DNA from: Negaprion brevirostris
Lineage: Eukaryota
Direction: 5' to 3'
NCBI GenBank assembly: GCA_030324005.1
Contig: JARDVH010000193.1
Span: forward strand, 80,294,837 to 80,358,836
Length of the DNA stretch: 64,000 nucleotides
Under the pieces are notes generated by a model. The model worked only from the letters and a program-made list of their open reading frames with translations. It did no database searches and was not told the origin of the DNA. Position 1 is the first letter of the stretch. The number at the start of each line of letters is the position of its first letter. The translations under genes and the position numbers were made by a program. This document shows, one piece after another, positions 6,786 to 62,700 of the stretch.

Positions 6786-7566
6786 ACAATGTAACTACAA
6801 TATTGTCAATACACTTACATTTAAGTTCATCTGCTTAAAATGCCAACGGGTATCCATCAATCTCTTGGTCCATTTAATCACATTAGTGATGCCAACTGTG
6901 ATTAAATGCTTCCTGGAAGTTCCATCATCGTGTCTTAATCCCCTTCCCTGCCTCCACTCTCTTGTCACTAGTCAAACAACACACCCATTCTTGTGATGCC
7001 TTCTATGCCAATTGGAAAGCAAAGAGACTCATTACACAATTGGATGATGCACGACTGTAAGCCAAACAGCCTTTCTTCCCATTTTCAATATCTTTATATC
7101 TGGTGGATAAATGGTCAAAGAAAATGGCAAAAAAAACTTTTTTAATGACCCAGTGATTTTTCTACCAGTTTGTGCACAGCAGTATCCTGGAGATTGACCT
7201 TCAAATCTTAGAGACTCCAGACCAGTCTTGAAGGGCTGGTAACCCTGGATCACATTCACCAAGGATGCCAAGCTAAGTCAATATGGTTATATCCTCAACA
7301 AGCCTCAAAGGATTAGCTACCTGGAGATTGATGTAAGGAGTCTTTTGAGGAGCATAAATAGAGGCACCGACCAACCCACTGGCCTGCTTCTGTGAAGTAG
7401 ATGCTATGTAATACCATATAGCCAAGAATATGAATATGACATTTTTGATAACTTTTTACCAGATTCACCTGAGAAAGGCCCTTCCTCCAGACCTTTTTGT
7501 GCGTCCAGAGGAAAAATTTTACCCAGCCCAGCCCAACACTACAGGGTTGTGAATTTCAAATTAGGC

Positions 7567-7641
7567 TGGCATGCTGGCACAGTGCTTAGCACTGCTGCCT
7601 TGCAGCACCAGGGACTTGTGTTCAATTCCAGTCTCAGGTCA
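7567..7641 (+). mobile_element. tRNA-derived V-SINE (HE1-like) 5' head; remainder at 11430-11640
   Basis: ggcacagtgcttagcactgctgcct...ttcaattcc (Pol III A/B-box head), similar to the copy at 26500-26673; stops at TCAGGTCA. Confidence 0.8.
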
Positions 7642-7930
7642 AGTCAAATCAAATCCAATTCAGAGTCCCAACAAGTTGGAACATTCCCGATCCAAGCTGA
7701 CAAGACAGGGCTCTCACCACCCATCTTGGGCTTGATCTACATGATCCAAGCTGATTGGAGTAGGTATAGCTCCTCCTCCAAGGCTTGATCTTATTTGCAT
7801 CTTAGCCAAAAGGCCGAGATACCTCTTTAAAGAATTGCTTCAAATGAAGCTAAAATGTAACCTAATCACTTCAACCAAGCGCAGCATGTCGATACTACAC
7901 TTCATCTTAGCCAAAAGGCTGAGAAGCGAT
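7642..7930 (-). mobile_element. U2 snRNA-headed short retroposon (SINEU-like), copy 1
   Basis: Minus strand 7930-7891 = ATCGCTTCTCAGCCTTTTGGCTAAGATGAAGTGTAGTATC, 38/40 to vertebrate U2 nt 1-40 as recalled. Internal U2 nt 7-27 copy at 7799-7819. Ends in a (GATTT)n-like tail at 7642-7660. Confidence 0.75.
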
Positions 7931-8799
7931 TAGCACATCATTCAGTAGCCTCAATATCCATTGCAGCCAGCCAAAGCTACAGGCAATCTCAAAAGAATTA
8001 AATGCTTTTAAGTTCCTCTTTGTGTAAATATTGTGGTTAGAACAATGGGGTGGCTCAGTGCTTAAGGTTCATTCAAATATGAAGGGAAAAGTAAACAAAC
8101 ACAGCCAACTGGAGGCTGAGTGAAAATGATTAAGCTGTCAGTCAAAGGAGAGATTTTAAGGACTGGAATGAAGGTGAATGGAATCAAAGGTATATAGATG
8201 ATTTGAAGATATTTCAAATGTTCTTAGTTTTCTATGAAGCATCAGTGACTTGAAATAAATGCAGTGTTAAAACAATGGGGCTAAATGTGCCACTGTGGAG
8301 AAGTGGCAAGATCCAATCACGTGATCTTCATCCCAGGGTAGAATGGTGTGGTCAACATTTTGCCCCCAATCCAAGCCCATCAATTTCCCCCAGGACCCGA
8401 AGGGACCCATCATTTGCAGCCTGGCAGCAGCAGACAGGCACGGGACCTATACCTCCTTTTCCCTTCCCTCTTGGGGTCCAAGGCACCAGGTCAGGGCGTT
8501 AGCAAAGAATTTTGGGAGCTCTCTTTCCAAACAGATGGAAATTTTCTAAATGGGAAAGAACAAATAGGAAGGTCTGTGTTTGGGCAGAGGGCAAGAGTGA
8601 TTCAATGACTTATGGAAATACTTCCCCATTTCGTTCCGAATCCATCTGATCAGCACAATTATCAATACAATTAGCAAACAATTCTTTATTGAGGCTTTTT
8701 AATGATTGTGAAGAATAAATTTTCCCTAAAATTTCACTCACTCATACGTTAATTTGAACATTTATAATTCCATAACTTTTATACATGGTGATACTTTAC

Positions 8800-9002
8800 A
8801 TGATTATTTTGTTGTTAGTCATTGAATGGTTTCAAGAAGGAGATAGATATATTTCTATTAAAAAAAGGGATAAGGGGATATGGGGGATAGGTGGGGAGGT
8901 GGATTTGAGACCAGGCAGAGATCAGCCATGATCTGATCGAGTAGCTGAGCAGGGTCCAAGGGCCAAATTTAGGTACTTCTGCTGCTAATTCCTATGTTCC
9001 TA
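8800..9002 (+). mobile_element. CR1 LINE 3' UTR fragment
   Basis: ttcaagaaggagatagat...agatcagccatgatct...cctatgttcct 3' end. Confidence 0.65.
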
Positions 9003-9164
9003 ATTTCTTAGCCACAGTTGGTTATAAACAATTTCTTGTATGAGAGCATGGACACAACCTAATCCTGAGGTTCTACTCTCTCATTGTGTGATCAGGCATT
9101 AGGAGACAAATGGGAGGCACCTATATTTATCAGACTGAATTTCATTGTTTCTCATTTACAGGGA

Positions 9165-9510
9165 CGCAATGGTGTGGTGTTTTTTTGTCACTAGATGAGT
9201 AATTCAGAGACCCAGGGTAATGGACTAGGGACCCATGTTCAAAACCACAATGGTCATGGTGAATTTGTATTCAATAAAAATCTGGAATGGAAAGTCCAAT
9301 GATGACCATGAAACCGTTGTGGTAAAACCCCAGCTGGTTTTCTAATGTAATTTAGGGAAGAAAACCTTCCAGCCTTACCTGGTCTTGACTGCATGTGGCT
9401 CCAGATCCACAGCAATGTTGTTGACTCTTAAATACCCTCTGGAATGGGTGAACCAACCACTCAATTGATGGGCAATAAATGTTGGTTCAGCCAGTAATGC
9501 CCATTTTCCC
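9165..9510 (+). mobile_element. tRNA-derived SINE (second shark SINE family)
   Basis: Head ...gtcactagatgagtaattcagagaccc...gttcaaaaccac and tail gatgggcaataaatgttgg; homologous to 21703-22045 and 12195-12385. Confidence 0.75.
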
Positions 9511-10359
9511 CAAATATACTTTAAAATAAATTGCAGCATCCATAGTACAAATCCACTTTGAAATATTTTCAGATTAGCACACAGTGCATGACTGAGTCAA
9601 TGCCCGTCCCAACCCTTATAAAACTATGACTTCGAAAGTTAGCACTTGCAAATAAAATAAGACACACTGAGGCTAGGAATTATTGAAATTACACCTTGCA
9701 ATATAAACTAATTCAGCTATATAAAAATATCAACACAAGATGTATCCAGAATAAAATCAACTCATGTTTCCAAGTTTACATTGATCATTAGTACAGACAT
9801 GATGGGCCAAAAGATCTGTCATTCATTCCATGATCGTAAATCAGGGTCAGAGTTCAGGGTCTGTATTTGGGCAACTTTTCTATTTCCAGTCACCTGATGT
9901 GGATTTAGTTCTTCAATATCTAACAAGAGACAAAAATTCATGTGAAATAAAATCCTTCAGGAACAAATATTGGATTTAAGTGATGGATAAAGTTGAAATT
10001 GAATAAAGACATTTTTACAAAATGGGCACAGTAACTGAACTTGACCGACAGAAAACTGATTCATCGTTAATGAGATCATTTCAACAGATAAAGGGTCTGT
10101 ACTTTCCCAGGTCTGAAGAGGTGGATTTGGAATAAGTTCAGCAAGGAAAAATGATTCATTCACAAAAACACGTTTGCCGGAATTCTCATGTCCCACACAC
10201 CCTGTTACCACTGCCAGCACAAATGGAGAACTTAGCGCTCAGTCTTATCCTGATTCAGCAGCAGAACAAGAGAATCCCAGCCACGGGTGAGGTTGGAGAA
10301 ACCGGCCCTTTATATTTTAAATATCCGACTCCAAACTCTTCCCATCTCTTCAGTGAAGA

Positions 10360-10431
10360 TTATTTATGTTGTGCTTGTGCTATTTCTGCATAGATGACAG
10401 ATGAAGCATCTTCTTTTAAAGGAACCATTTC
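10360..10431 (-). CDS. Putative terminal coding exon of an ITIM-bearing receptor cytoplasmic tail (EMVPLKEDASSVIYAEIAQAQHK*)
   Basis: Acceptor tctctcttacAG at 10432+, phase 0, stop TAA at 10360-10362; V-I-Y-A-E-I fits the ITIM consensus. Confidence 0.55.
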   Translation of the reverse strand, partial: EMVPLKEDASSVIYAEIAQAQHK

Positions 10432-10560
10432 CTGTAAGAGAGACATTAACTTAAAATAATGGAATTGATTATTGCATCTTATTACATCAGACAATTTTTC
10501 AAATGTTTCAGACATTGATGTTATGGGTGTGATTTCACAACTAGAAATCAAGATACTTAC

Positions 10561-10610
10561 AATATCTGAAGATTGTTTGTTATACTGTCTACTGTCTGCC
10601 TGTCGACTTC
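10561..10610 (-). CDS. Putative penultimate exon (50 bp, SRQADSRQYNKQSSDI) of the same receptor
   Basis: Acceptor ttttgattatcacAG and perfect donor GTAAGT (plus acttac 10555-10560); phase 1 in, phase 0 out; joins in frame to 10360-10431. Confidence 0.55.
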
Positions 10611-10875
10611 CTGTGATAATCAAAAGTATCAAAATTAAAAATAATATTGACTGAAAAATATGACAATTAGCATAATAACATCCTCAACTGACTGCATTCA
10701 CTAATACAGCCAATGGATCAGCATGACATTGATGAACAGTGAAGACAGGTTTGATTTGGAGGACTCACATGCATAATAAGCACAGCATTTACACAATGGG
10801 CCACAAGGAACATCATAGATTAACCAAGACCATTCCACTTTTGTTGGGAGATTGCATGAGCCAGTGGTGGCTCAC

Positions 10876-10968
10876 TCAGGATGCTGCTGAAAGTGGGTGT
10901 TTTGTATGAATTGTTGGAAGAAAGTGAATCTGGAGGTAGTGGGAGCTGCTCCTTCAGCCTTATTTCCT
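10876..10968 (-). CDS. Possible further upstream exon (93 bp, phase 1-1; EIRLKEQLPLPPDSLSSNNSYKTPTFSSIL)
   Basis: Acceptor gattcAG after a pyrimidine tract, donor GTGAG; frame compatible with 10561-10610; weaker signals. Confidence 0.3.
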
Positions 10969-11290
10969 CTGAATCAACTCGGGCACAATAAAAGGAATGA
11001 AAATCAAGTGTCAAAGATTGCCACCCCTTTCCCCATCATGAATGCCAAGTAACAGGTGTCACCTACATCCCCAGAGGAAACTTAACTTTACTAAGATCAA
11101 TTTGGGATGAATCTTCATAGTGTCTTTACATCTTTATGACATGCAAAGGAAATTAATACTTTTAAAGTTTAATCCCTGTGCGAGTAACATNNNNNNNNNN
11201 NNNNNNNNNNNNNNNNNNNNNNNNNNNNNNNNNNNNNNNNNNNNNNNNNNNNNNNNNNNNNNNNNNNNNNNNNNNNNNNNNNNNNNNNNN

Positions 11291-11429
11291 AATTGCTTCA
11301 AATGAAGCTGAAATGTAACCTAATGACTTCAACCAAGTGCAGCATGTCGATACTACACTTGATCTTAAACAAAAGGCTGAGAAGTGCCAAGCAATTTCAT
11401 GGTAAGCAAGTCTGGTAAATTTTCCAGAA
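11291..11429 (-). mobile_element. U2 snRNA-headed retroposon, copy 2 (3' part lost in N gap)
   Basis: 11291-11384 aligns without gaps to 7833-7926 with 6 differences; U2-like segment at 11349-11386. Confidence 0.7.
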
Positions 11430-11640
11430 TCAGGTCACTGTCTGTGTGGAATTTGCACATTCTCCCCATGTCCGCATGGGTTTCCTCCAGGTGCTCAGGT
11501 TCCCTCCCACAGTCCAAAGGTGTGCAGGTTAGGTTGATTGGCCATGCTAAATTGCCTCTTTGTGTGAGGGAGACTAGCAGGATAAATAATTGGGGTCATG
11601 GGGATAGGGCTTGGGCGGGATTGTTGGCAGGGCAAACTTG
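11430..11640 (+). mobile_element. V-SINE body and tail (continuation of 7567-7641)
   Basis: TCAGGTCActgtctgtgtggaatttgcacattctcccc...cccacagtccaaagg...ggccatgctaaattgcc. Confidence 0.85.
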
Positions 11641-12385: not shown

Positions 12386-12654
12386 CCCCTAAATACCACC
12401 TGACCCTATCCCCTAAATCCCAGGTGCGATTGTGGTGGTCACAGGCTCAAAGAGCCAGACAGCCTCCTGCACTGTGGAGATTCTATGACTCTAATACGGT
12501 GACACCTTCAATGTTGTGATATGTTGGGAGCAAGCTGTATGAATCATGTCTGAGGTGAAACAGTGGTCAGTGTTCCCAAAGGTGCCAATGGTCCTTGAGC
12601 AACACCTGACTGACAAGGCCTGGAGGGTGGGAATTTTGAGGGCAAGAGAGGCCC

Positions 12655-12856
12655 CCTACAGTGACGTCAGAGGACTTGACGCCTCCCGGCATGCAACGGG
12701 GCGCCGGAAGTGCCGCCATTTTACTCTATTGACAAAACAAGTGACCGAAATTTTGCGGAGGGTTTTGAAGTCGGTTCTAATTTTGTTTTTTTTTCCCCCA
12801 TCCCCCCGCCCCCATTTGTTTTNNNNNNNNNNGGACGGCGTCGGCTTTAAGTTTTC
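12655..12856 (+). promoter_or_regulatory. CUL4B TATA-less CpG promoter / 5' UTR
   Basis: CRE TGACGTCA 12662-12669; ZNF143/Staf-like CTCCCGGCATGCAACGGG 12683-12700; ETS/GABP CCGGAAGTG 12704-12712; YY1 CCGCCATTTT 12713-12722; CpG-rich from ~12650 to 13345. Confidence 0.7.
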
Positions 12857-13373
12857 ATGTTTCGAACGGGCCTCTCTTCACAAAATTCACCGCAGGAGGT
12901 GCGACAACAGGCTGATGTTAGTCCGAGGAAGCGAAAGTTAGCCGAGGCCGGCGAGTTCGAGCACCAGCACCAGACACCTCAGCAAACCCAGCTCTTCCCC
13001 TCCGCCGCCCCCAAGTCTTCCTCCACCTCCTCCTCCTCCTCCTCGTCCTCTGCCTGCTGTAATCACCAGCCTCAGAAGAGAGTCAAGTTCGAGGACTCAC
13101 TGGACTTTGTTGGACTCGATGTGATGATGGCGGAGGAGCAGAGGAAAAACAGCGGCTGCTCCGTGCTCACGGGGCATGCCAACGGCCTGACCAAGTCGAC
13201 CACCTTCGCCAACAGCAAGCCGGNNNNNNNNNNNNNNNNNNNNNNNNNNNNNNNNNNNNNNNNNNNNNNNNNNNNNNNNNNNNNNNNNNNNNNNNNNNNN
13301 NNNNNNNNNNNNNNNNNNNNNNNCAACAGCAAGCCGGGAACGGCTAAAAAATTAGTTATTAAAAATTTCAAAG
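12857..13373 (+). CDS. CUL4B: Cullin-4B coding exon 1 (contains false 100-N gap)
   Basis: MFRTGLSS...QEVR...RKRKL...QKRVKFEDSLDFVG...[28 protein letters not shown] matches the CUL4B-specific N-terminal extension; donor AAG|GT at 13374. Confidence 0.95.
13013..13051 (+). repeat. (TCC)n trinucleotide repeat encoding poly-Ser in CUL4B
   Basis: aagtcttcctccacctcctcctcctcctcctcgtcctct. Confidence 0.85.
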
Positions 13374-16300
13374 GTACAATAGAGTAATAAGAGATCTTAA
13401 TGTTTTAACATGAAGTGTGACATTTGGAAAATTCACTTTCTGTAATGTTGGAATTCTGTTTCTAAAGCATTTTCCATGACCTTTTCCAACTGCTTCTTCC
13501 AAATCATAAAGCCCACGTACATTTCTTTTCAATCTCGACACTTATAAGAGGAGACACCAAAGCCTGGAAAGCAGTTTAGTTATTTTGTTTTCCACTTTAA
13601 TTATTTTAAGTCGGTTTTCCCTTTGGCCTACAAATTTCCTAAAGACAAGGTGAACATTTTCATCACATTACAGGCAGTGACCAAACTGTTTCATTACAAT
13701 CTCTGTTTTGTTAAAAGTTTCCTTCTGTTAAACTTTACTTCCATGTGTGGTAAATCTAACATGATTTTAAACATTCTGATTGACAATTCAAATGAAAAAC
13801 ACCTCCACTTGGAACCCAAGGTTGTTTTCCTTGGTTATGTTTTAAACACCTTTACCATCCTGATAAAATATGTGTTCGATGCCTGAACCATTCAACTTAA
13901 TGTAGTCTTACTGTTTATAGTTCACTAAATTTGCTTGTGCTGCTGCTAGAATTATTTAAATATATGTTTAGGATAAGTATTTTATTTAAAGAGGTTTGCT
14001 GATTATTCACTTTATAAATGAAAATAGCATGTGTTATGAAGGGAGCTGTGTGATTATAGATTGTTTTATAAAATCTGGTATTTTGCAATGGGCCAGTAGT
14101 TACACTTAAATCTGTTTCTTAATCTGAATGCAGGACGTGATGGATTTTAGACTAGATTTTTTTGCTTGTCTTTCTGCTATTGTTGAGTTAAACGTATGTC
14201 ATTTGTACATGTTAAACACAATTGGCCAATACATAATGGAGTGTGGATCAGATCTGCAATGTTTTGGCCATCATGGCTGAATTGGAATGGCATCCTTGGA
14301 TGCAATTGTAGCACTCAAACTGGAGGGTTGGTTCAGATTAGTTTATTTTGAAATGAGATGAATATTGAAGTTGTGATCATACTGGCTTGTGGTTTTGCAT
14401 TTTTACGAAGTGTATATTCTGATCTCAGTTTGGCACATAAGGGCAATAATAATTGGAGAGTAAAGGCAGCACGTTACGGAAACATTAAAATGTTCCCAGG
14501 TTTTATTCCAACTGCAGTAACCTGCAAAGGCTCAATTTATATGCATACGTGAGGAACCATTAGACCTATATTCTAAGACTTGTGCCTCTTGCAAGAGTTG
14601 GAAGAGAAGAAAAAATGGCAAGTAATAAGTAAAGTATAAATATTATGTATACAGGCAAGGGACAGTAGTTTCTGTGAATAGTTAATCTCTATTTTAGTTC
14701 TTGACTTTTAGTCAAAATGAAGTTGCTCAACTTGGGTGCTGTGTAATATATGGAAGGAGAGTACAGCATTTAACATTGAGAATCTATTGTGGAAAGAAAA
14801 TGCAGTTTATGGTGCCATGTCTAATTTGTCTCATGTATTAGCTACATGTAATTATTTGGAAATCTAGATATGGCTAATTGTATTTTTAATTAGTAAATAA
14901 AGAAAGCGTAATTGACACCCTCTGGAAGTCTATAATCTCAATACTGTCACACTTCTATCCATATGGTGAAATGGTAGTACAAAAGGCAGAGTGCACAAGT
15001 TTTTGTTTCCATTCTTTACAATCTTAGTTATTGAATGGTGCACATGTTAAGTATATATACACATCAATTAAATTCGCCTCTTTCGGCATTTGCAGGCATT
15101 TCCTTCTGAAATTTCTGGATGTTGCTAAAAGTGTCACTGTAGTGACACCTGTAGTTAACCAGCTATTTGTATTAGACAATACTGCCTTGTCCTAGGTACA
15201 TAAATGATAAATATAGTACCGCAGAAGAGAATTGCCCCATTTAGTGCATTGAAGTAGAGTACTGAAGGTGTCATGTCAGGTATCTCGGTTACAAAAATAA
15301 TTTTAGTGGATACCTTTGAAATGTTGAGATAGGATTGGCATCCCTGCTTGATCCTGGATATCAAACGCAGAGCACTAATTCAATTTGAAAATATTTTGCA
15401 GCAAGTGAAATGTGAGACCGAATGGTGATCATTTCTGTTATGCCACGATTAGTACTCCTACAAAGGAATGAATGTTGATTCCTGCTCCAACTGAGGAGTT
15501 GTCTGCAATGTCAATTGCTGAGTGGTCTTCGCAAAATGACTGTTAAGTGCACCCCCTAGTGTGGGACTGAACTACAGGGTCAGGTGTTTCTCAGTTTGTG
15601 CTGATTGGGAGAAAGAACAACTAAATTGATATTGGAATTTTATTTGGTGCGGATGGAAATCAACTTGCATTCAGAATTTGATTGTACATTTTGTAGAAAC
15701 AGATATGAGCTTTTATTTTCGACATGTTCGCAGATTCCCCCCTCTCTCTTGATAAGTAGCCTGATAAATTATGGCTACTTGAGCAAAATATTGGTGTGTG
15801 TAGAATTGTATTCCAGCATGATTCAGAACCTTGTGGGTAATGGAAAAGGGCAGCCTATGAAAGCAATTAATTGAATATGTTGCTGTTGTTTTGGGATCCA
15901 CTTTGGTCTCCTATTGACTGCATTCTCACTGTAGAGATTAGGAAATTCCTTTGAGGAGAAATGTTTTGAGCCACGTATATAATACTTGGATGAGTAGTAC
16001 TGGTGGAAGCAGTTTAAGATTGTGAAGTAAGAATATCAGTCTGTAATTTGAATATGATTTTGTATTCTAAATGAAAAGTACACTGAAGCAAGTAGCAGCC
16101 TATATCAGTGTTGCATCTTTCTCTCTTCTGTACCTTGGCTGATTCAATGTAAATTTGTGTTCCCATCTGTTAAGTGTGTGCAGAATAAGACAATTGTGAT
16201 TAGTATGGATGTTGAAACTCTTCAGGTAGGGAACTACAAGTTTAAAATTGTTAACAGTAATTCCTTTTGCACTTCATAGAGAACTGCCTTTACAATTTTA

Positions 16301-22049: not shown

Positions 22050-23400
22050 TTTGAAAATCTGCATATTGATTGGACTAACCAGACTGGCAGTGGTACTGTC
22101 GAATAATGTTAAATTGAAAAGCAGGATGTACAAAATGGCAAAGGATAGTGATAGACCAAAGCACTGGCAAGTTTTTAGGATCCAGCAGCAAAAGAGGGAG
22201 AAAATAAATTTTGAGAAAATTTGCATGCAGCGTCAGAACAAACAGTAAGAGTTTCTATGGATATTTAAATAGGAAATGGGCGGCTACAGTTAAATGTGGG
22301 ATCTCAGCTAGGTTGGTGAATTGATAAAAGCAAACAAAAAAATGTTGGATATGCTCAGTAAATTATTTGCATCAGTCTTCACTATGGAAAACATTGTCAA
22401 TATNNNNNNNNNNCCTTAAGATATCAAATGAGCTAACTTCAAATAACATAGTAGAACTTAGAAAAATCCCAGTCACATGGGATAGAATATTAGAAAAACT
22501 CAAGGGGCTAAAGGTGGACATGTCACTAGGACCCAATGAACTGCATGCCAGAGTTTTAATGGAAATGGCTGCAGAGGTAGCAGACCCATTGGTTGAAATT
22601 TTTTGTAACTCACCAAATTCAGAGAAGGTACTAGAAGATTGGAAAGTTGTCAATGTGACTCCCTTGTTCAAAAAGGGGAGAAAGACAGAGGCAGGGAATG
22701 ATAGACCAGTTAGTTTAACATCTATTATTGGCAAGACTCCAGAATCAATAATAAAAAGAGAAATATCTAATCATTTAGGAAAGCTGAATATAATCAAATT
22801 TGGTCAACATGAACATTGTTTGAAAGGTAAATCATGTTTGACAAATTTTCTCAATTTCTTTGAGAATGTAACAGAGAGTAGATAAAGAGGAACCTGTAGA
22901 TGTGTAGTTATTTAGATTTCCAGAAAGCATTTGACAAGATGCTGCATAGGAGGTTGGTGCATAAAGTAAAAGCCCATGGAATTGCAAGTGTTTGCATTGA
23001 TTTAAAACTGGCCATCACACAGAAAACAGAGTTGGAATAAATGGTTCCTTTTCAGAGTGGAAAGATTTGACTAATGGTATATCGCATGGATTAGTTCTTG
23101 GCCCACAACTGTTCACTATTTACATTCTTTTCCTTCCTCCAGGTTATGAATGTAAGGGTTCCAAATTTGCCAATGATATAAAGATAGATGGGAGGGCATG
23201 TAATGATAAGGAAACAGTGATTGTGAACAGGATGTAGATAAATTGGGTGACTGGACGAAAAGCTGGCAAATGGAGTTTAATGTGGGGAAGTTTAAGATTG
23301 TGCACTTTGGGGGAATCAAAAGGCAGATCATTATCCAAATGATAGACTGCTGGTGAGCAAAATACAGAGGGATTTAGGTGTCCTGTTGCATGAATCAAAA
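22050..23400 (+). mobile_element. CR1 LINE ORF2 fragment
   Basis: ORF 22367-22885: GPNELHARVL...EDWKVVNVTPLFKKG...RPVSLTSIIGK...GKSCLTNFLNFFE. Confidence 0.9.
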
Positions 23401-31630: not shown

Positions 31631-32147
31631 AAGATTAGTCATTATTTTAAATGAGTTGGAGTGAATTTGATGGAAATTATGACAGACTGAGCAATATGAC
31701 ATAAGAGTATAGTTAGGAAAAATACTTTGTGTCTTCTATTGACTGTGATGATCAAAGGTGGTAATTTGTGGATTGCTACCTGAGCCATGACAAACTGGCA
31801 TAGGGTCAATAAGGTCAGAGTTGAATGCGTAGCTGAAAGATTAGTGTGGGAGAAACAGATTTCAATTCATGGGAAAAACACCACAAATGCTGGAAAACTG
31901 AAATGAAGGACCATCATTGACCTAAAAGATTAACCCTGTTTCCCTCCTGGCTGATCCCTTAATATTTATAGCATTTTCTGTTTTTATTGCTATTCGTGGG
32001 GCATTGGCACTATAACTGGGGAACACAGGAGCTGTTCTGCTGGGATAGGCTTCTATTTGCTGGAACAAGTGTTCAAGTGAATTTAATAACTGAAGCTGTA
32101 AATGAGGCTTCAAAATGCACTGGGGAACTGCTCAAGTGTGGAAATTT

Positions 32148-32737
32148 TGAGTTTATTTATTAGTGTCACAAGTAAGCTCACATGAACATTGCAACAAAGT
32201 TACTGTTAAAATTCCCGAGTCATACTCTGGCACCTGTTTGGGTACACTGAGGGAGAATTTAGCATGGTGAATGCACCTAACCAGTACATCTTTCAGACTC
32301 TGCGAGGAAATTCACACAGATACTGGTAGAACGTGCAGACTCTGCACAGACTGTGACCCAAGTCAGGGATCAAACCCGGATCCCTGGAGCTGCAAGGCAT
32401 CAGTGCTAACTACTGTATTACCCATCTCCTAAATTTAAGTTTGTTTATTAGTGTCACAAGAAGGCTTACATTAACACTGCAATGAGGTGACTGAAAATTA
32501 CCTAAGCACCACATTCCATCGTCTATTTGGGTATACTGAGGGAGAATTTGACATAGTCAATGCATCTTGCCAGCATGTTTTTCAGATTATGGAAGAAACC
32601 GGAGCACTGGAGGAAATCCATCCGGACACAGGGAGAATGTGCTGACTCCACACAAACAGTAACCCTAACTGGGAATCAAACCAAGGGACCCTGGTGCTGT
32701 GAGACAGCTGTGCTAACCACTGTGCCACGGTGCTGCC
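32148..32737 (-). mobile_element. Two tandem V-SINE-family copies
   Basis: Two units starting tttatttattagtgtcacaag (~32150, ~32440) and ending in reverse-complement tRNA heads. Confidence 0.8.
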
Positions 32738-32790
32738 TTTTCCTTTCCCTTTAACTTTTCATATAGTTAAAGGGAAAGGGCAAGGCAATA

Positions 32791-32888
32791 GTGCGGGCGA
32801 GTGACGTGGGCGATGAGAGTGCGGGCGAGTGACGTGGGCGATGAGAGTGCGGGCGAGTGACGTGGGCGATGAGAGTGCGGGTGAGTGA
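32791..32888 (+). repeat. 28-bp minisatellite, 3 perfect copies plus a partial copy
   Basis: GTGCGGGCGAGTGACGTGGGCGATGAGA at 32791, 32819 and 32847; partial copy at 32875. Confidence 0.95.
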
Positions 32889-42228: not shown

Positions 42229-44720
42229 TAAAGAACAAAGAAAATTACAGCACAGGAACAGGCCTTGTGGCCCTGCAAGCCTGAAACCAACCATGCTGTC
42301 CAACTGAGCTAAAACCCCCTACCCTTCCGGAGACCATATTCCTCTATTCCCATCCTATATGTGTATTTGTCTAGATACCCAAAACTCATTACCGTATCAG
42401 CTTTCGCTACCTCCCTTGGCAACGAGTCCCAAGCACCCACCATCCTCTGTGTAANNNNNNNNNNCACCTTCAACCTATGCCCCCTAATAATTGACTCTTT
42501 CACCCTGGGAAAAAGCTTCTGACTCTCTACTCTGTTCATGCCCTTCATAATCTTGTAGACTTCTAACAGGTCGCCCCTCAACGTCCATCGTTCCAATGAG
42601 AACAAACCAAGTTTCTCCAACCTCTTTCCATAGCTAATGCCCTCCATGCCAGGCAACATCCTGGTAAATCTTTTCTGTACCCTCTCCAAAGCCTCCTCAT
42701 CCTTTTGGTAGTGTGGCACCAGAATNNNNNNNNNNNNNNNNNNNNNNNNNNNNNNNNNNNNNNNNNNNNNNNNNNNNNNNNNNNNNNNNNNNNNNNNNNN
42801 NNNNNNNNNNNNNNNNNNNNNNNNNNNNNNNNNNNNNNNNNNNNNNNNNNNNNNNNNNNNNNNNNNNNNNNNNNNNNNNNNNNNNNNNNNNNNNNNNNNN
42901 NNNNNNNNNNNNNNNNNNNNNNNNNNNNNNNNNNNNNNNNNNNNNNNNNNNNNNNNNNNNNNNNNNNNNNNNNNNNNNNNNNNNNNNNNNNNNNNNNNNN
43001 NNNNNNNNNNNNNNNNNNNNNNNNNNNNNNNNNNNNNNNNNNNNNNNNNNNNNNNNNNNNNNNNNNNNNNNNNNNNNNNNNNNNNNNNNNNNNNNNNNNN
43101 NNNNNNNNNNNNNNNNNNNNNNNNNNNNNNNNNNNNNNNNNNNNNNNNNNNNNNNNNNNNNNNNNNNNNNNNNNNNNNNNNNNNNNNNNNNNNNNNNNNN
43201 NNNNNNNNNNGTGCCAATTCTGTATCCACTTTACCAGCTCACCTCTGATCCCTTGTGACTTCACCAACATCAGTCTGCCATGAGGGACCTTGTCAGATGC
43301 CTTACTGAAGTCCATGTAGACAACGTCCACTGCCCTACCCTCATCAATCATCTTCATCACTTGCTCAAAAAACTCGATCAAGTTAGTGAGACATGACCTC
43401 TGCTTCACAAAACCATGTTGTCTCTTGCTAATATGCCCACTTATTTCCAAGTGGGAATAAATCCTGTCTCGACGGATCCTCTCCAATAATTTCCCTACCA
43501 CTGATGTAAGGCTCACTGGCCTGTAATTATCTGGATTATTCTTGATACCCTTCTTAAATAAAGGAACAACATTGGCTATTCTCCAATCCTCTGGGACCTC
43601 CCATGTAGCCAGTGAGAATACAAAGATTCTTCTCTCGTGGCTCCAGTAATTTCCTCGCCTCTCAGTATTTTGGGGTATATCCCATCAGGCCCTGGGGACT
43701 TGTCTATCTTAATGTTTCTCAGGAAACCCAATACCAATTCTTTCTTGATCTCAACATGCCTCAAACTATCTACACCCTTTCCCAGATTCATCATCCACCA
43801 AGTCCTCTTCGGTGAGTACTGACGCAAAGTACCCATTTAATACCTCGCCCATTTCCTCTGCCTCCGTGCATAAATTCCCTCACCTGTCCTTGATTGGGCA
43901 ACCCTCTCCCTGGCTACCCTCTTGCTCTTTACATATAGAAAGCCTTGGGATTTTCCTTAATCCTGCTGGCCAATGATTTTTCATGATTCCTTTTAGCCCT
44001 TCTTACTCCTTGCTTAAGTTTCTTTCTACTTTCTTTGTATTCCACACTTGCTTCACGTGNNNNNNNNNNNNNNNNNNNNNNNNNNNNNNNNNNNNNNNNN
44101 NNNNNNNNNNNNNNNNNNNNNNNNNNNNNNNNNNNNNNNNNNNNNNNNNNNNNNNNNNNGTTTCTTTCTACTTTCTTTGTATTCCACACTTGCTTCACGT
44201 GTTCCCAGCCTCCTAGCCTTGACAAATGCTTCCTTTTTCTCTTTGATTAGGCTCACAATATCTCTAGTTATCCAAGGTTGACAAAACTTGCCATACTTAT
44301 CCTTCATCCTTACAGGAATATGCCGGTCCTGAATCCCCATTAGCTTAGGTTTGAAAGCCTCCCACACGCCAGATGTTGATTTGCCCTGGAACATCTGNNN
44401 NNNNNNNCAGTTCCTGTCTAATATTGTTGTAATTAGCCTTCCCTCAGTTCACCTCAACTTGAGGACTTCACTTTTCCTTATCCAGCAGAACCTTAAAGCT
44501 GACTGAATTGTGGTTACTGTTCCCAAACTGCTCCCCAACTGAAACATCGACCACGTGGCGGGCTCATTCCCCAGTACCAGGTCCCGTGCGACTCCTTTCC
44601 TAGTTGGACTATCTACATACTGTTTCAAGAAGCCCTCTTGGATGCTCATTACAAACTCTACCCCATCCATCCCCTAGCACTAAGTGAGTCCCAGTCTATA
44701 TAGGGGAAGTTAAAATCTCC
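42229..44720 (-). mobile_element. Relatively young CR1 LINE, ~2.5 kb 3' portion
   Basis: SLTSVVGKLLERI...QHGFVKQRSCLTNLIEFF...VDVVYMDFSKASDKVPHGRL; KSPGPDGIYPKIL; (aaagaac)n tail. Confidence 0.92.
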
Positions 44721-49644: not shown

Positions 49645-49810
49645 CTGACAGCATCTGTGGAGAGAGAATAGACCCAATGTTTCAAGTCAGGACCAGTCTG
49701 ACTTGAAATGTTAGCTCTATTTTCCCTCCACAGATGCTGTCAAATCTGCTGAGATTTTCCAGCCTTTTCTGGTTTTGGTTCAGATTCCAGCATCTGCAGT
49801 GTTTTGCCTT
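49645..49810. mobile_element. Hairpin-forming short repeat (probably Penelope-derived); related copies at ~52607, ~53157, ~53880, ~57177
   Basis: ctgacagcatctgtggagagagaatag...tttcaagtcag / ctgacttgaaa...ctccacagatgctgtca inverted arms. Confidence 0.6.
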
Positions 49811-51842: not shown

Positions 51843-53321
51843 TGATGAACAAACACACTATGTCAAGGAGCTGTGGAACCTGGCATAAATTGGGCGATTA
51901 CCAATACACCAGGGGCATATTTTTAGGGTCAGGGGCCTAGAATTGGTCATATCTTAATTACTGAATGAAAAAATCCAAATAAAACTTGAAGGGATTCTTC
52001 CATTCACTTAGTGAAAAAATGTTGATTGTAGTTTGCAAAATATTAAATTTTCCCAATTGATAAATTGGTACTTAACTGAATGAAGATTTTCCAAAAATGT
52101 CCTGGTGAAGAAAGTTTTCATTGCTTGATGTCAAGTTCCTAAATTAATTCAGTTTAGTTCCTATCAGTTAAAATCCTGGTTTACTTGGAATGCAAAACTG
52201 CCTGTAATCTGGCAATGTTGATAGTTACATTTGGAGATGTTATGGAAAGGTGTGTGGCAAAAGGAAGAAATATCTAAATCTTCTAAGCAGTATCGTAATT
52301 CCTCAAATTATGAAGGGAGGTTATATGATCAAGGCTTGTATTCTTAAAATTGGAAGGTTAAGCAATGATTTCATTGATTTTTAAAATAAATTGATAGGGC
52401 AAATAAAAATAAACTTTTCTTCTAGTAGGGGATACTAAAATCCGAGCCAGATCTTTCAGAAGAAAAGCCAGAAAACACATCTCATGCACTGTTCAAATAG
52501 GAAACTGCCTCCCAGAAGGATTAGTAGGTGCTAGTTTAGTTACTAATTTAAAACCCAAGGTTGATAGATTCTTCAGATAAAAGGAAAATATTGTGAATGC
52601 TGGAAGCAGAAATTGCTGGAAAAACTCAGCAATTCTGACAGCATCTTTGGGGTTAGAATAGAGCCAACGATTCCAGTGTTGGCCATGAACCCATGCTCTC
52701 TTATATTGCTATCCCAGTGCAGCTTGTCCTCACATGTCTGATGCTCTCCACTGCCCAAAGATATACTTATTCCATTATAATGCATACAACAACTGAGCGG
52801 AAACTAGTCTCTAGGACAGAGAATTTCAAAAGGTTACAGTTTTTAAGTTAAGAAATTCCTCCTTATCTCATTTCCAAATGGCTAACCAATTGTTCTGAAA
52901 TTGTAACCCCTAGCTCTGGACTCGCCAACCAAGGAAACATCTTCCCAGAATCTACCCCATCAGTCATCTTGTGAAATTAATATATTTCACTGAGATCACT
53001 ACTCATTATTCTTTAAGAAAATGTATAATCATTGCAAATTAAGAATTCATTCTTTAAATGTCACATTGCTTATTCACCATATCTTGATTTCTTCTGATCT
53101 TTAATCTACTTCTGAATTCACTTTAACTAACTTGACCATCATCCCTACATATGGACACAGAAAATGCTGGAAAATCTCAGCAAGTCTGGGGATGTCTGTG
53201 GCGAGAGAATAGAGCCAACGTTTCAAGTTGGAATGACCCTTTATCAGAGCTCAGACTTGCATAGTCTGGTTCAAGAAATATTCAAAGTTATTTAGTTAAT
53301 TTATACCTTTATTCTATTTAG

Positions 53322-61604: not shown

Positions 61605-62700
61605 TGCTTTGTTATTGTCACACGTATTAGTATATTGTAAAAAGTATTGTTTCTTACATGCTATACAAAGCATATCGTACGTGGGGAAGAAAAAGAGAGT
61701 GTAGAATGTAGTGTTACAGTCATAGCTAGAAAAAGCAACTTAATGCGAGGCAGGTCCATTCAAAAGTTTAATGGCAGCATGGAGGAAGCTGTTTTTGAGT
61801 CAGTTGGTATTGTCCTCAATTTTTTGTATCTTTTACCCAACAGAAGAAGATGGATGAGAGTATGTCCTGGTGCATAGGGTCCTTGTTTCTGCTGGCTGCT
61901 TTTCTGAGGCAGCGAGAAGTATAGACAGTGTCACAGGCTGGTTTGAGCGATGGACTGGGCTTCATTTGCGACTCTTTTTAGTTTATTGCTGTCTGGGACA
62001 GAGCAGGAGCCATACTAAGTTGTGATACAACCAGAAAGAATGCTTGCTATGGTGCATCTGTAGAAGTTGGTGACAGTTGTAGTGGACGTACCAAATTTCC
62101 TCAGTCTCCTGCAAAAGTTGGTAGGCTTTCTTAACTATAGTATCTGCATGGAGGGTCCAGGACAGGTGGTTGGTGATCTACAAATCTAAACACTTGAAGC
62201 TCTTGACCATTTGTACTTCATCCCCATTGATGCAGACGGGGTATGCCCTCCACTATGCTTCCTGAAGTCATTGACTATTTCCTTTTTGTTGACATTGAGG
62301 GAGAGATTATTATTGTTGCAGCAGTTCACCAGATTCTGTCTCTTTCCTGTACCGTGTCTTGTCGTTGTTTGACATCTGAAACAGCGGTGGTGTCATCATA
62401 AGCTTGAAAATTGAGTTGGAGGGGAATTTGGCCACATTGTCAGAAGTGTATAAGGAGTATGGTAAGGGGCTGAGGACACAGCCTTGCAGAGCACCAGTGT
62501 TGAGAATGACCGTGGAGGTGTTGTTGTTGCCTGTCCTTACTGACTGCAGTCTGTGGGTTAGAAAATCTAGGATCCAGTTGCAGAGGGAGGAGTCAAATCC
62601 CGGGCTATGAAGTTTGGAGATGACTCTCAGGAATCATGGTGTTGAACGCTGACCTGTATTAGGTGTTTCAAGTTATGTAAGGCCAGGGAGATGGTGTCTG
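61605..62700 (-). mobile_element. Rex1/Babar-type LINE fragment
   Basis: Homologous to 46437-47781. Confidence 0.75.

Follow-up and report, generated by a model that had tools for sequence, protein, structure and literature searches.

The closest described systems to the element reported here are the SINEU retroposons. All their groups end in poly(A), and Kojima (2015) found none outside crocodilians, according to the accessible text of that study (PMC4494074); a 2017 review, in the portion available, repeats the restriction to this clade (PMC5381603). The same text on SINEU describes U2-headed subfamilies of SINEU-1 (C, E, F, H, and J) with repeated U2 pieces, a 32-bp piece of the U2 5' end in SINEU-3, and extensions of 31 and 42 nt in subfamilies of SINEU-2. 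These elements occur in hundreds to thousands of copies with a common structure and have a target preference in common with their Tx1-Mar partner. Their T4 runs were taken as an argument against Pol III, and template switching onto snRNA was proposed as a route (PMC4494074). A second point of comparison is provided by Keno (Tx1 clade) and Utopia (RLE), LINEs that target U2 genes and whose 3' flank starts at U2 nt 39, as given in the available parts of the sources (PMC4640811, PMC6136364).

In the 64-kb stretch of shark DNA that we analyzed as a whole (the window), Rfam, alignment, and folding delineate a U2-headed element of 289 nt on the minus strand (7642-7930, copy 1). It consists of U2 nt 1-40, a non-U2 body with extra U2 pieces and twin hairpins, and a (GATTT)-type tail. 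The head (7891-7930, minus) includes stem-loop I and the branch-point recognition sequence. The Rfam model of U2 snRNA (RF00004) places the U2 start at 7930 on the minus strand, with 47 bits and an E value of 3e-06 in a search of the whole window. Its well-aligned part is restricted to positions 1-40, where 37/40 correspond to the consensus and the mismatches are at nt 3, 11, and 28. The initial annotation had given 38/40, and this value holds against vertebrate U2. A variant U2 gene was ruled out, since only U2 positions 1-40 align and both the Sm site and the 3' stem-loops are missing. The 3' half of U2 is likewise absent from copy 1, and a pattern scan found an Sm-like pattern solely within the tail repeat.

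The body opens with a 70-nt non-U2 stretch, after which a second U2 piece of about nt 7-27 is found (7798-7819, minus; 21/22 identical to the head), and a third piece, nt 22-31, lies at 7784-7793. Copy 1 thus carries a series of snRNA pieces, namely U2 nt 1-40, about 7-27, and 22-31. An exact 12-nt repeat occurs at 7689 and 7743, and an equal length was reached in 3/2000 shuffles of the body. The 3' end (7642-7690, minus) has a weak hairpin (z -2.0, 9/200 shuffles), not significant over a longer stretch, and a tail in which imperfect GATTT units extend for about 20 nt to 7642. Copy 1 has this GATTT-type tail instead of a poly(A) tail. The two internal U2 pieces, the repeat, the (GATTT)n-like tail, and the total of about 290 bp had all been noticed beforehand and were recovered in our analysis, with the second piece at 7798-7819 rather than 7799-7819.

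The existence of a second, diverged copy with the same U2/body junction was also confirmed. Copy 2 (11291-11386, minus) covers U2 from about nt 3 to 40 and 58 nt of the common body (alignment; Rfam U2 E value of 5e-04 on the local stretch). Over 11291-11384 it is identical to copy 1 at 88/94 positions, 55/58 in the body part, and the junction is the same in both. It then runs into a gap of 100 N (11191-11290), of nominal size, which hides its remainder, and the visible part amounts to the first 98 positions. On its other side, an extension of 33-35 nt (11387-11421, minus) separates the U2 head from the target site duplication (TSD) described below. No Rfam family matched this extension, and Rfam lends no support to a U1 origin. 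The 5' ends of the copies are thus different: in copy 1, unrelated DNA gives way directly to U2 nt 1, and in copy 2, the extension is followed by U2 from about nt 3. Since these unlike flanks break at the U2 start, a U2-headed RNA was likely retroposed at least twice, and at least two separate insertions are needed whatever the origin of the DNA lying between the copies.

These observations bear on the possibility that the element is a one-off chimeric retrocopy, made by a template switch between U2 snRNA and another RNA and copied once or twice without founding a family. Such products have precedents in the U2 retrocopies with truncated 3' ends and the snRNA chimeras already described (PMC5322556 and PMC4494074, in their accessible parts), and only two copies are seen in the window. 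Yet each copy stops at the U2 5' end, beyond which the flanks are unrelated, unlike in a DNA duplication, 6/94 sites differ, and the body structure is ordered and repeated, so that we regard this explanation as improbable. The mammalian tailless or chimeric U2 retropseudogenes, as described in the available text of PMC5322556, resemble the shark element in having a U2 piece that is 5'-complete and 3'-truncated, but the shark piece has a tail and a common structured body in two copies. The earlier conclusion that this is a family and not a one-off is therefore upheld in part: the two copies do have unrelated 5' flanks, but a high-copy family is not what we see, since the two in 64 kb sit at both ends of one tRNA-SINE interruption. 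They are joined as the two ends of one composite and are not independent neighbors.

The interrupted element is a tRNA-derived SINE that we take to be V-SINE/HE1-like. When aligned with an intact copy from the window, its head half (7569-7641, plus) covers positions 11-81 and its body half (11422-11638, plus) positions 68-279. HE1 is a tRNA-headed SINE of sharks and rays (PMC3747384, available text), and the likeness noted here is one of type. The two halves overlap by 16 nt, of which 14 are identical, and these form the TSD, with one side at 7626-7641 (plus) next to the tail of copy 1 and the other at 11422-11437 (plus) next to the 5' end of the insert on the side of copy 2, in both cases with zero offset. 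The 16-nt match is unique at 13/16 or better in a scan of the minus strand upstream of copy 1 and of the whole plus strand. In six other SINE copies, 9-12 of the 16 columns agree with the head half; when these copies are compared with one another, in 15 pairs, one pair reaches 16/16 and the rest 8-13. As assembled, the interruption spans 3780 nt, with the 33-35-nt extension and copy 2 first and the tail of copy 1 last. A search for TSDs had been suggested as a check on the element. It did reveal a duplication of 16 bp, but one that pairs the tail of copy 1 with the 5' end of copy 2 and not with the start of copy 1 itself, whose own flanks give no TSD (best 5/7). The tail and the 16-bp TSD fix the 3' end of the element and mark a retro-insertion. 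Elsewhere in the window, two adjoining and partly similar tRNA-SINE pieces (32143-32740; 69 percent over 295 nt) lie beside a 28-nt tandem repeat (32790-32888).

The reading that we prefer, with a probability of roughly 60 percent, is that the 289-nt insert is a non-autonomous retroposon, SINEU-like in the way it works and spread by the enzymes of a LINE, with two copies in the window. The similarities with SINEU are numerous: the element is short (below 500 bp, 289 nt for copy 1) and non-coding, has a U2 5' piece followed by serial U2 pieces, contains T4 runs, lacks an evident internal promoter, and, in copy 2, has a 5' extension of 33-35 nt, within the 30-40 nt of SINEU extensions. It differs in its shark host, in its GATTT-type tail as opposed to poly(A), and in its target, a tRNA-SINE as opposed to Mariner-N4_AMi. 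The shark element thus works like SINEU but is not a member of it, having no poly(A) and belonging to another clade. Insertion would have occurred by target-primed reverse transcription carried out by a LINE of the kind that leaves long TSDs, for which a U2-headed one of the Keno/Tx1 type is the most likely candidate, though the tail is not poly(A). The element itself may have grown as U2 pieces were repeatedly added or duplicated.

The birth of the element could be related to the LINEs that target U2 genes. The U2 match ends at nt 40 in both shark copies, within 2 nt of the Keno/Utopia site. This fits a birth from such an insertion, as had been proposed, but template switching onto U2 fits equally. 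The position of the junction is no proof, given what the accessible text of two studies reports: the breakpoints of U2 pieces found in retrocopies often fall in single-stranded regions (PMC5322556), and the U2 5' piece of SINEU-3 is 32 bp long (PMC4494074). The shark element is in any case neither Keno nor Utopia, as it has no ORF, is not followed by U2 from nt 39 onward, and lies outside a U2 gene. Nothing elsewhere in the window, where a partner LINE was sought, shares its 3' 99 nt beyond matches of 12-14 nt. Decayed LINE reverse transcriptase (RT) pieces, presumably CR1-like and Rex-like, are found at 42578-43684 (minus), 22328-22885 (plus), and 62310-62633 (minus), and none has the 3' end of the element.

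Alternatively, the two copies could be ends of a longer U2-headed LINE of the Keno/Tx1 type, copy 2 being its 5' end hidden by the gap and copy 1 a rare product of internal deletion or template switching rather than a member of a separate SINE family. The crocodilian Tx1-11_Crp does carry a U2 head (PMC4494074, accessible text), the gap after copy 2 has a nominal size only, and the internal U2 piece could mark the joint of a deletion between 5' and 3' ends. Against this, no RT or endonuclease is found in six frames of the sequenced interior, and the 3' flank is a tRNA-SINE and not U2 from nt 39. Tx1-Mar LINEs with U1 or U2 heads (Tx1-11_Crp and others) share with the shark copies a U2-derived 5' end located outside U2 genes, as far as the available text of PMC4494074 goes. 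They are, however, long and coding, and no such sequence is visible here, although the gap could hide one. We consider this explanation unlikely and retain that of a non-autonomous retroposon.

The fold of the whole element is better than those of 200/200 shuffles (z -3.8). An antisense arm that opens the body (7873-7887, and 11331-11345 in copy 2, minus; fold and shuffles) is predicted to pair with U2 nt 25-39. In copy 2, this masking helix has 15 uninterrupted pairs, four of them G-U, which 1/2000 shuffles reach. In copy 1, it is broken at nt 28 and its longest run of 11 pairs is not significant (119/2000 shuffles), but the predicted fold still pairs the arm. The head folds well on the U2-sense strand only (z -4.5 and -5.7 versus -1.4 and -0.9), a bias that is partly due to the stem-loop of U2 itself. 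Downstream lie the twin hairpins, the first at 7743-7793 (minus; z -2.8, 1/200 shuffles), starting with the third U2 piece (nt 22-31) and ending with its complement, and the second at 7689-7738 (minus; z -2.2, 7/200 shuffles). They have in common the base stem, a bulge, an internal loop, and the exact 12-mer, and they differ in their upper stems. Each has U2 nt 24-31 at the start and the complement at the end, as in the head hairpin. The twin hairpins show no strand bias, folding equally on both strands. This comparison of folds involves two copies and thus provides no covariation. The accessible text of PMC4494074 does not mention an antisense mask or twin hairpins of the kind predicted here. 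If formed, the hairpin would hide U2 nt 25-39, and the RNA would then not compete in splicing. The arm could also be a fossil of a fold-back during reverse transcription rather than a selected feature.

How would this RNA be made? A classical Pol III SINE was rejected: the head is U2 and not tRNA, 5S, or 7SL, ARAGORN finds no tRNA, and there are T4 runs inside it, which argue against Pol III. B-box-like 9-mers, consisting mostly of U2 letters, open both twin hairpins (7784-7790 and 7729-7737, minus), probably by coincidence. A Pol III promoter built from the U2 pieces seems unlikely, as the T4 runs come ahead of the B-box-like motifs and an A-box-like match is weaker by one base in copy 2. Pol II transcription would then start from outside the element, most simply from a master copy at nt 38-40 of a U2 gene, using the upstream U2 promoter. 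Such a master copy would account for a start at U2 nt 1. Because the promoter of a U2 gene is situated upstream of it (PMC4494074, accessible text), copies dispersed elsewhere are probably silent except where transcription reads into them. No master copy, promoter, or transcript of the element came to light. Searches for ribozymes gave no hammerhead core on either strand, no Rfam ribozyme match, and nothing that fits a rough HDV-like descriptor of our own design. A Penelope-like or retrozyme element with terminal repeats was discarded, as the repeat contains no hammerhead.

The two copies enclose an interior of 3.26 kb (7931-11190, minus), which we studied by translation searches and exon inspection. 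Nine read-through translations in six frames gave 0 Pfam families and no RT or endonuclease; the three minus frames leave out about 9181-9503, occupied by an older SINE. One frame had no match among 1.84 billion representatives, a 68-aa piece retained none of 15 candidates at E values up to 1, and the best value in the Atlas, 0.87, was under the lead threshold. The idea of a decayed LINE was dropped for lack of a Pfam match and of any homolog in the three further searches. The older SINE (9185-9504) has 69-75 percent identity with its relatives elsewhere in the window and thus looks older than the divergence between the two U2 copies. What the sequence does contain is three likely terminal exons of a candidate gene, with introns kept (10968-10876, 10610-10561, and 10431-10360, minus; AG/GT boundaries; phases 1, 1, and 0). 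Their reading frame stays open up to the last codon and has a tyrosine motif, VIYAEI, at its C-terminal end, which we presume to resemble receptor inhibitory motifs, and there is an AATAAA at 8690. Their acceptors are moderately pyrimidine-rich (0.60-0.65 against a cut of 0.7). No upstream exons are visible for 10968-10360, and no homolog was found. The interior thus looks like foreign gene DNA with introns, and the predicted gene is best treated as a lead. Given the retained introns and the location of copy 1 some 750 nt beyond the AATAAA, an origin at the DNA level is likelier than one from processed RNA. The interior is likely not part of the U2-headed element.

Three processes could have placed the interior there. 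An assembly misjoin through the repeat is a serious possibility, short of even odds, and repeat-mediated DNA copying and read-through transduction are each somewhat less probable. The misjoin concerns the composite only and is compatible with our preferred reading: the true locus would be an insert of about 325 nt with its 16-bp TSD, and the interior would come from another locus with another copy. The interior does have a 100-N gap on one side and the repeat itself on the other. At 2/9 of the gaps of 100 N in the window, the flanking sequence is duplicated (14 and 42 nt), implying that gaps can hide overlaps, and the upstream exons of the candidate gene would not fit ahead of the CUL4B CpG island except with a large gap. 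However, a difference of about 6 percent between the copies leaves short identical runs, which would usually be spanned by reads, and the scaffolder still had to put the interior here. The assembly of the window has 20 N gaps in 64 kb. One 100-N gap (13224-13323), inside the cullin-4B CpG region, has 14 duplicated flank bases that represent an assembly overlap, as do the 42 identical bases (44018-44059 and 44160-44201) flanking another.

At the other extreme, the whole 3.78-kb composite of copy 2, captured gene end, and copy 1 could be the actual mobile unit, moved as a single read-through RNA or as an element with terminal direct repeats. The two sides of the TSD adjoin the ends of the composite exactly, neither being offset, and the copies and the likely exons are in one orientation. 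However, the two retained introns and the position of copy 1, about 750 nt past the AATAAA, fit DNA better than processed RNA. Neither a hammerhead core nor an HDV-like pattern is present, LTR-type ends and a short TSD are lacking, and no second composite is seen in the window. This makes the composite a very doubtful unit of mobility, and we keep to the 289-nt retroposon as the element.

That the host is a shark is apparent from the locus itself. The element lies about 5 kb upstream of an exon (12899-13222) of cullin-4B, whose identity is 90 percent with basking shark, 89 with catshark, 83 with whale shark, 75-77 with skates, and 57 with elephant shark, in a comparison where 6/185 candidates passed. 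The first coding exon region of this gene extends over 12851-13387 (plus), with a CpG island at about 12500-13500. Farther away, an 89-nt near-perfect hairpin (49650-49738) is MITE-like and has two related copies (52601-52677 and 53152-53228); its Rfam match to mir-3202 is far under threshold. The proposal of an independent chondrichthyan U2-SINE is strengthened by the shark DNA, the two copies, and the 3' end of a retro-insertion, but not as regards a high-copy family.

Data from outside the window give some indication of spread. In a run index, 24 listed runs from 14 studies hold part of 7560-8000. Thirteen of these (7 studies; coded organisms A-E and rows without organism) hold 0.27-0.57 of the words, to be compared with roughly 0.22 obtainable from the flanks by themselves on the assumption of an even spread of the 44 words; six run rows with small shares (0.07-0.16) were left out. 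These shares weakly suggest that the stretch of the element is likely present in several species. They fit one orthologous locus as well as many copies, and the runs with the highest shares may come from the source sample itself. No RNA runs were among those listed as holding the stretch. Exact scans for the junction motif were negative in both viral and metagenome contigs. Those for the twin-hairpin motif gave six metagenome and two viral loci, which we attribute to chance in all eight cases (no match past the motif, GC 0.47-0.64). We found no shark U2-headed SINE in the literature searched, a scope that leaves outside most subscription papers, Repbase Reports, and the SINEU and Utopia supplements. 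If the family is already in Repbase or Dfam, the novelty lies in its structure and in the composite only.

A broader scenario can be drawn from these elements, and we offer it as tentative and, taken as a whole, less likely than the retroposon itself. Sharks may have evolved their own snRNA-headed SINE independently of crocodilians, with a body of U2 pieces that would each fold on a complementary arm, hiding the part of U2 that reads the branch point, and with pairs of copies that could bracket and move kilobases of host gene DNA. SINEU is in print from one clade, and an origin in sharks, if independent, would mean that snRNA-headed retroposons recur. The transcription of SINEU is stated as an open question in the accessible text of PMC4494074. 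Here, the start at U2 nt 1 and the junction at the Keno/Utopia site would fit a master copy located inside a U2 gene whose own promoter is intact. The masking arm, if it forms as predicted, may in turn be an answer to how an RNA with the splicing-active 5' end of U2 is tolerated.
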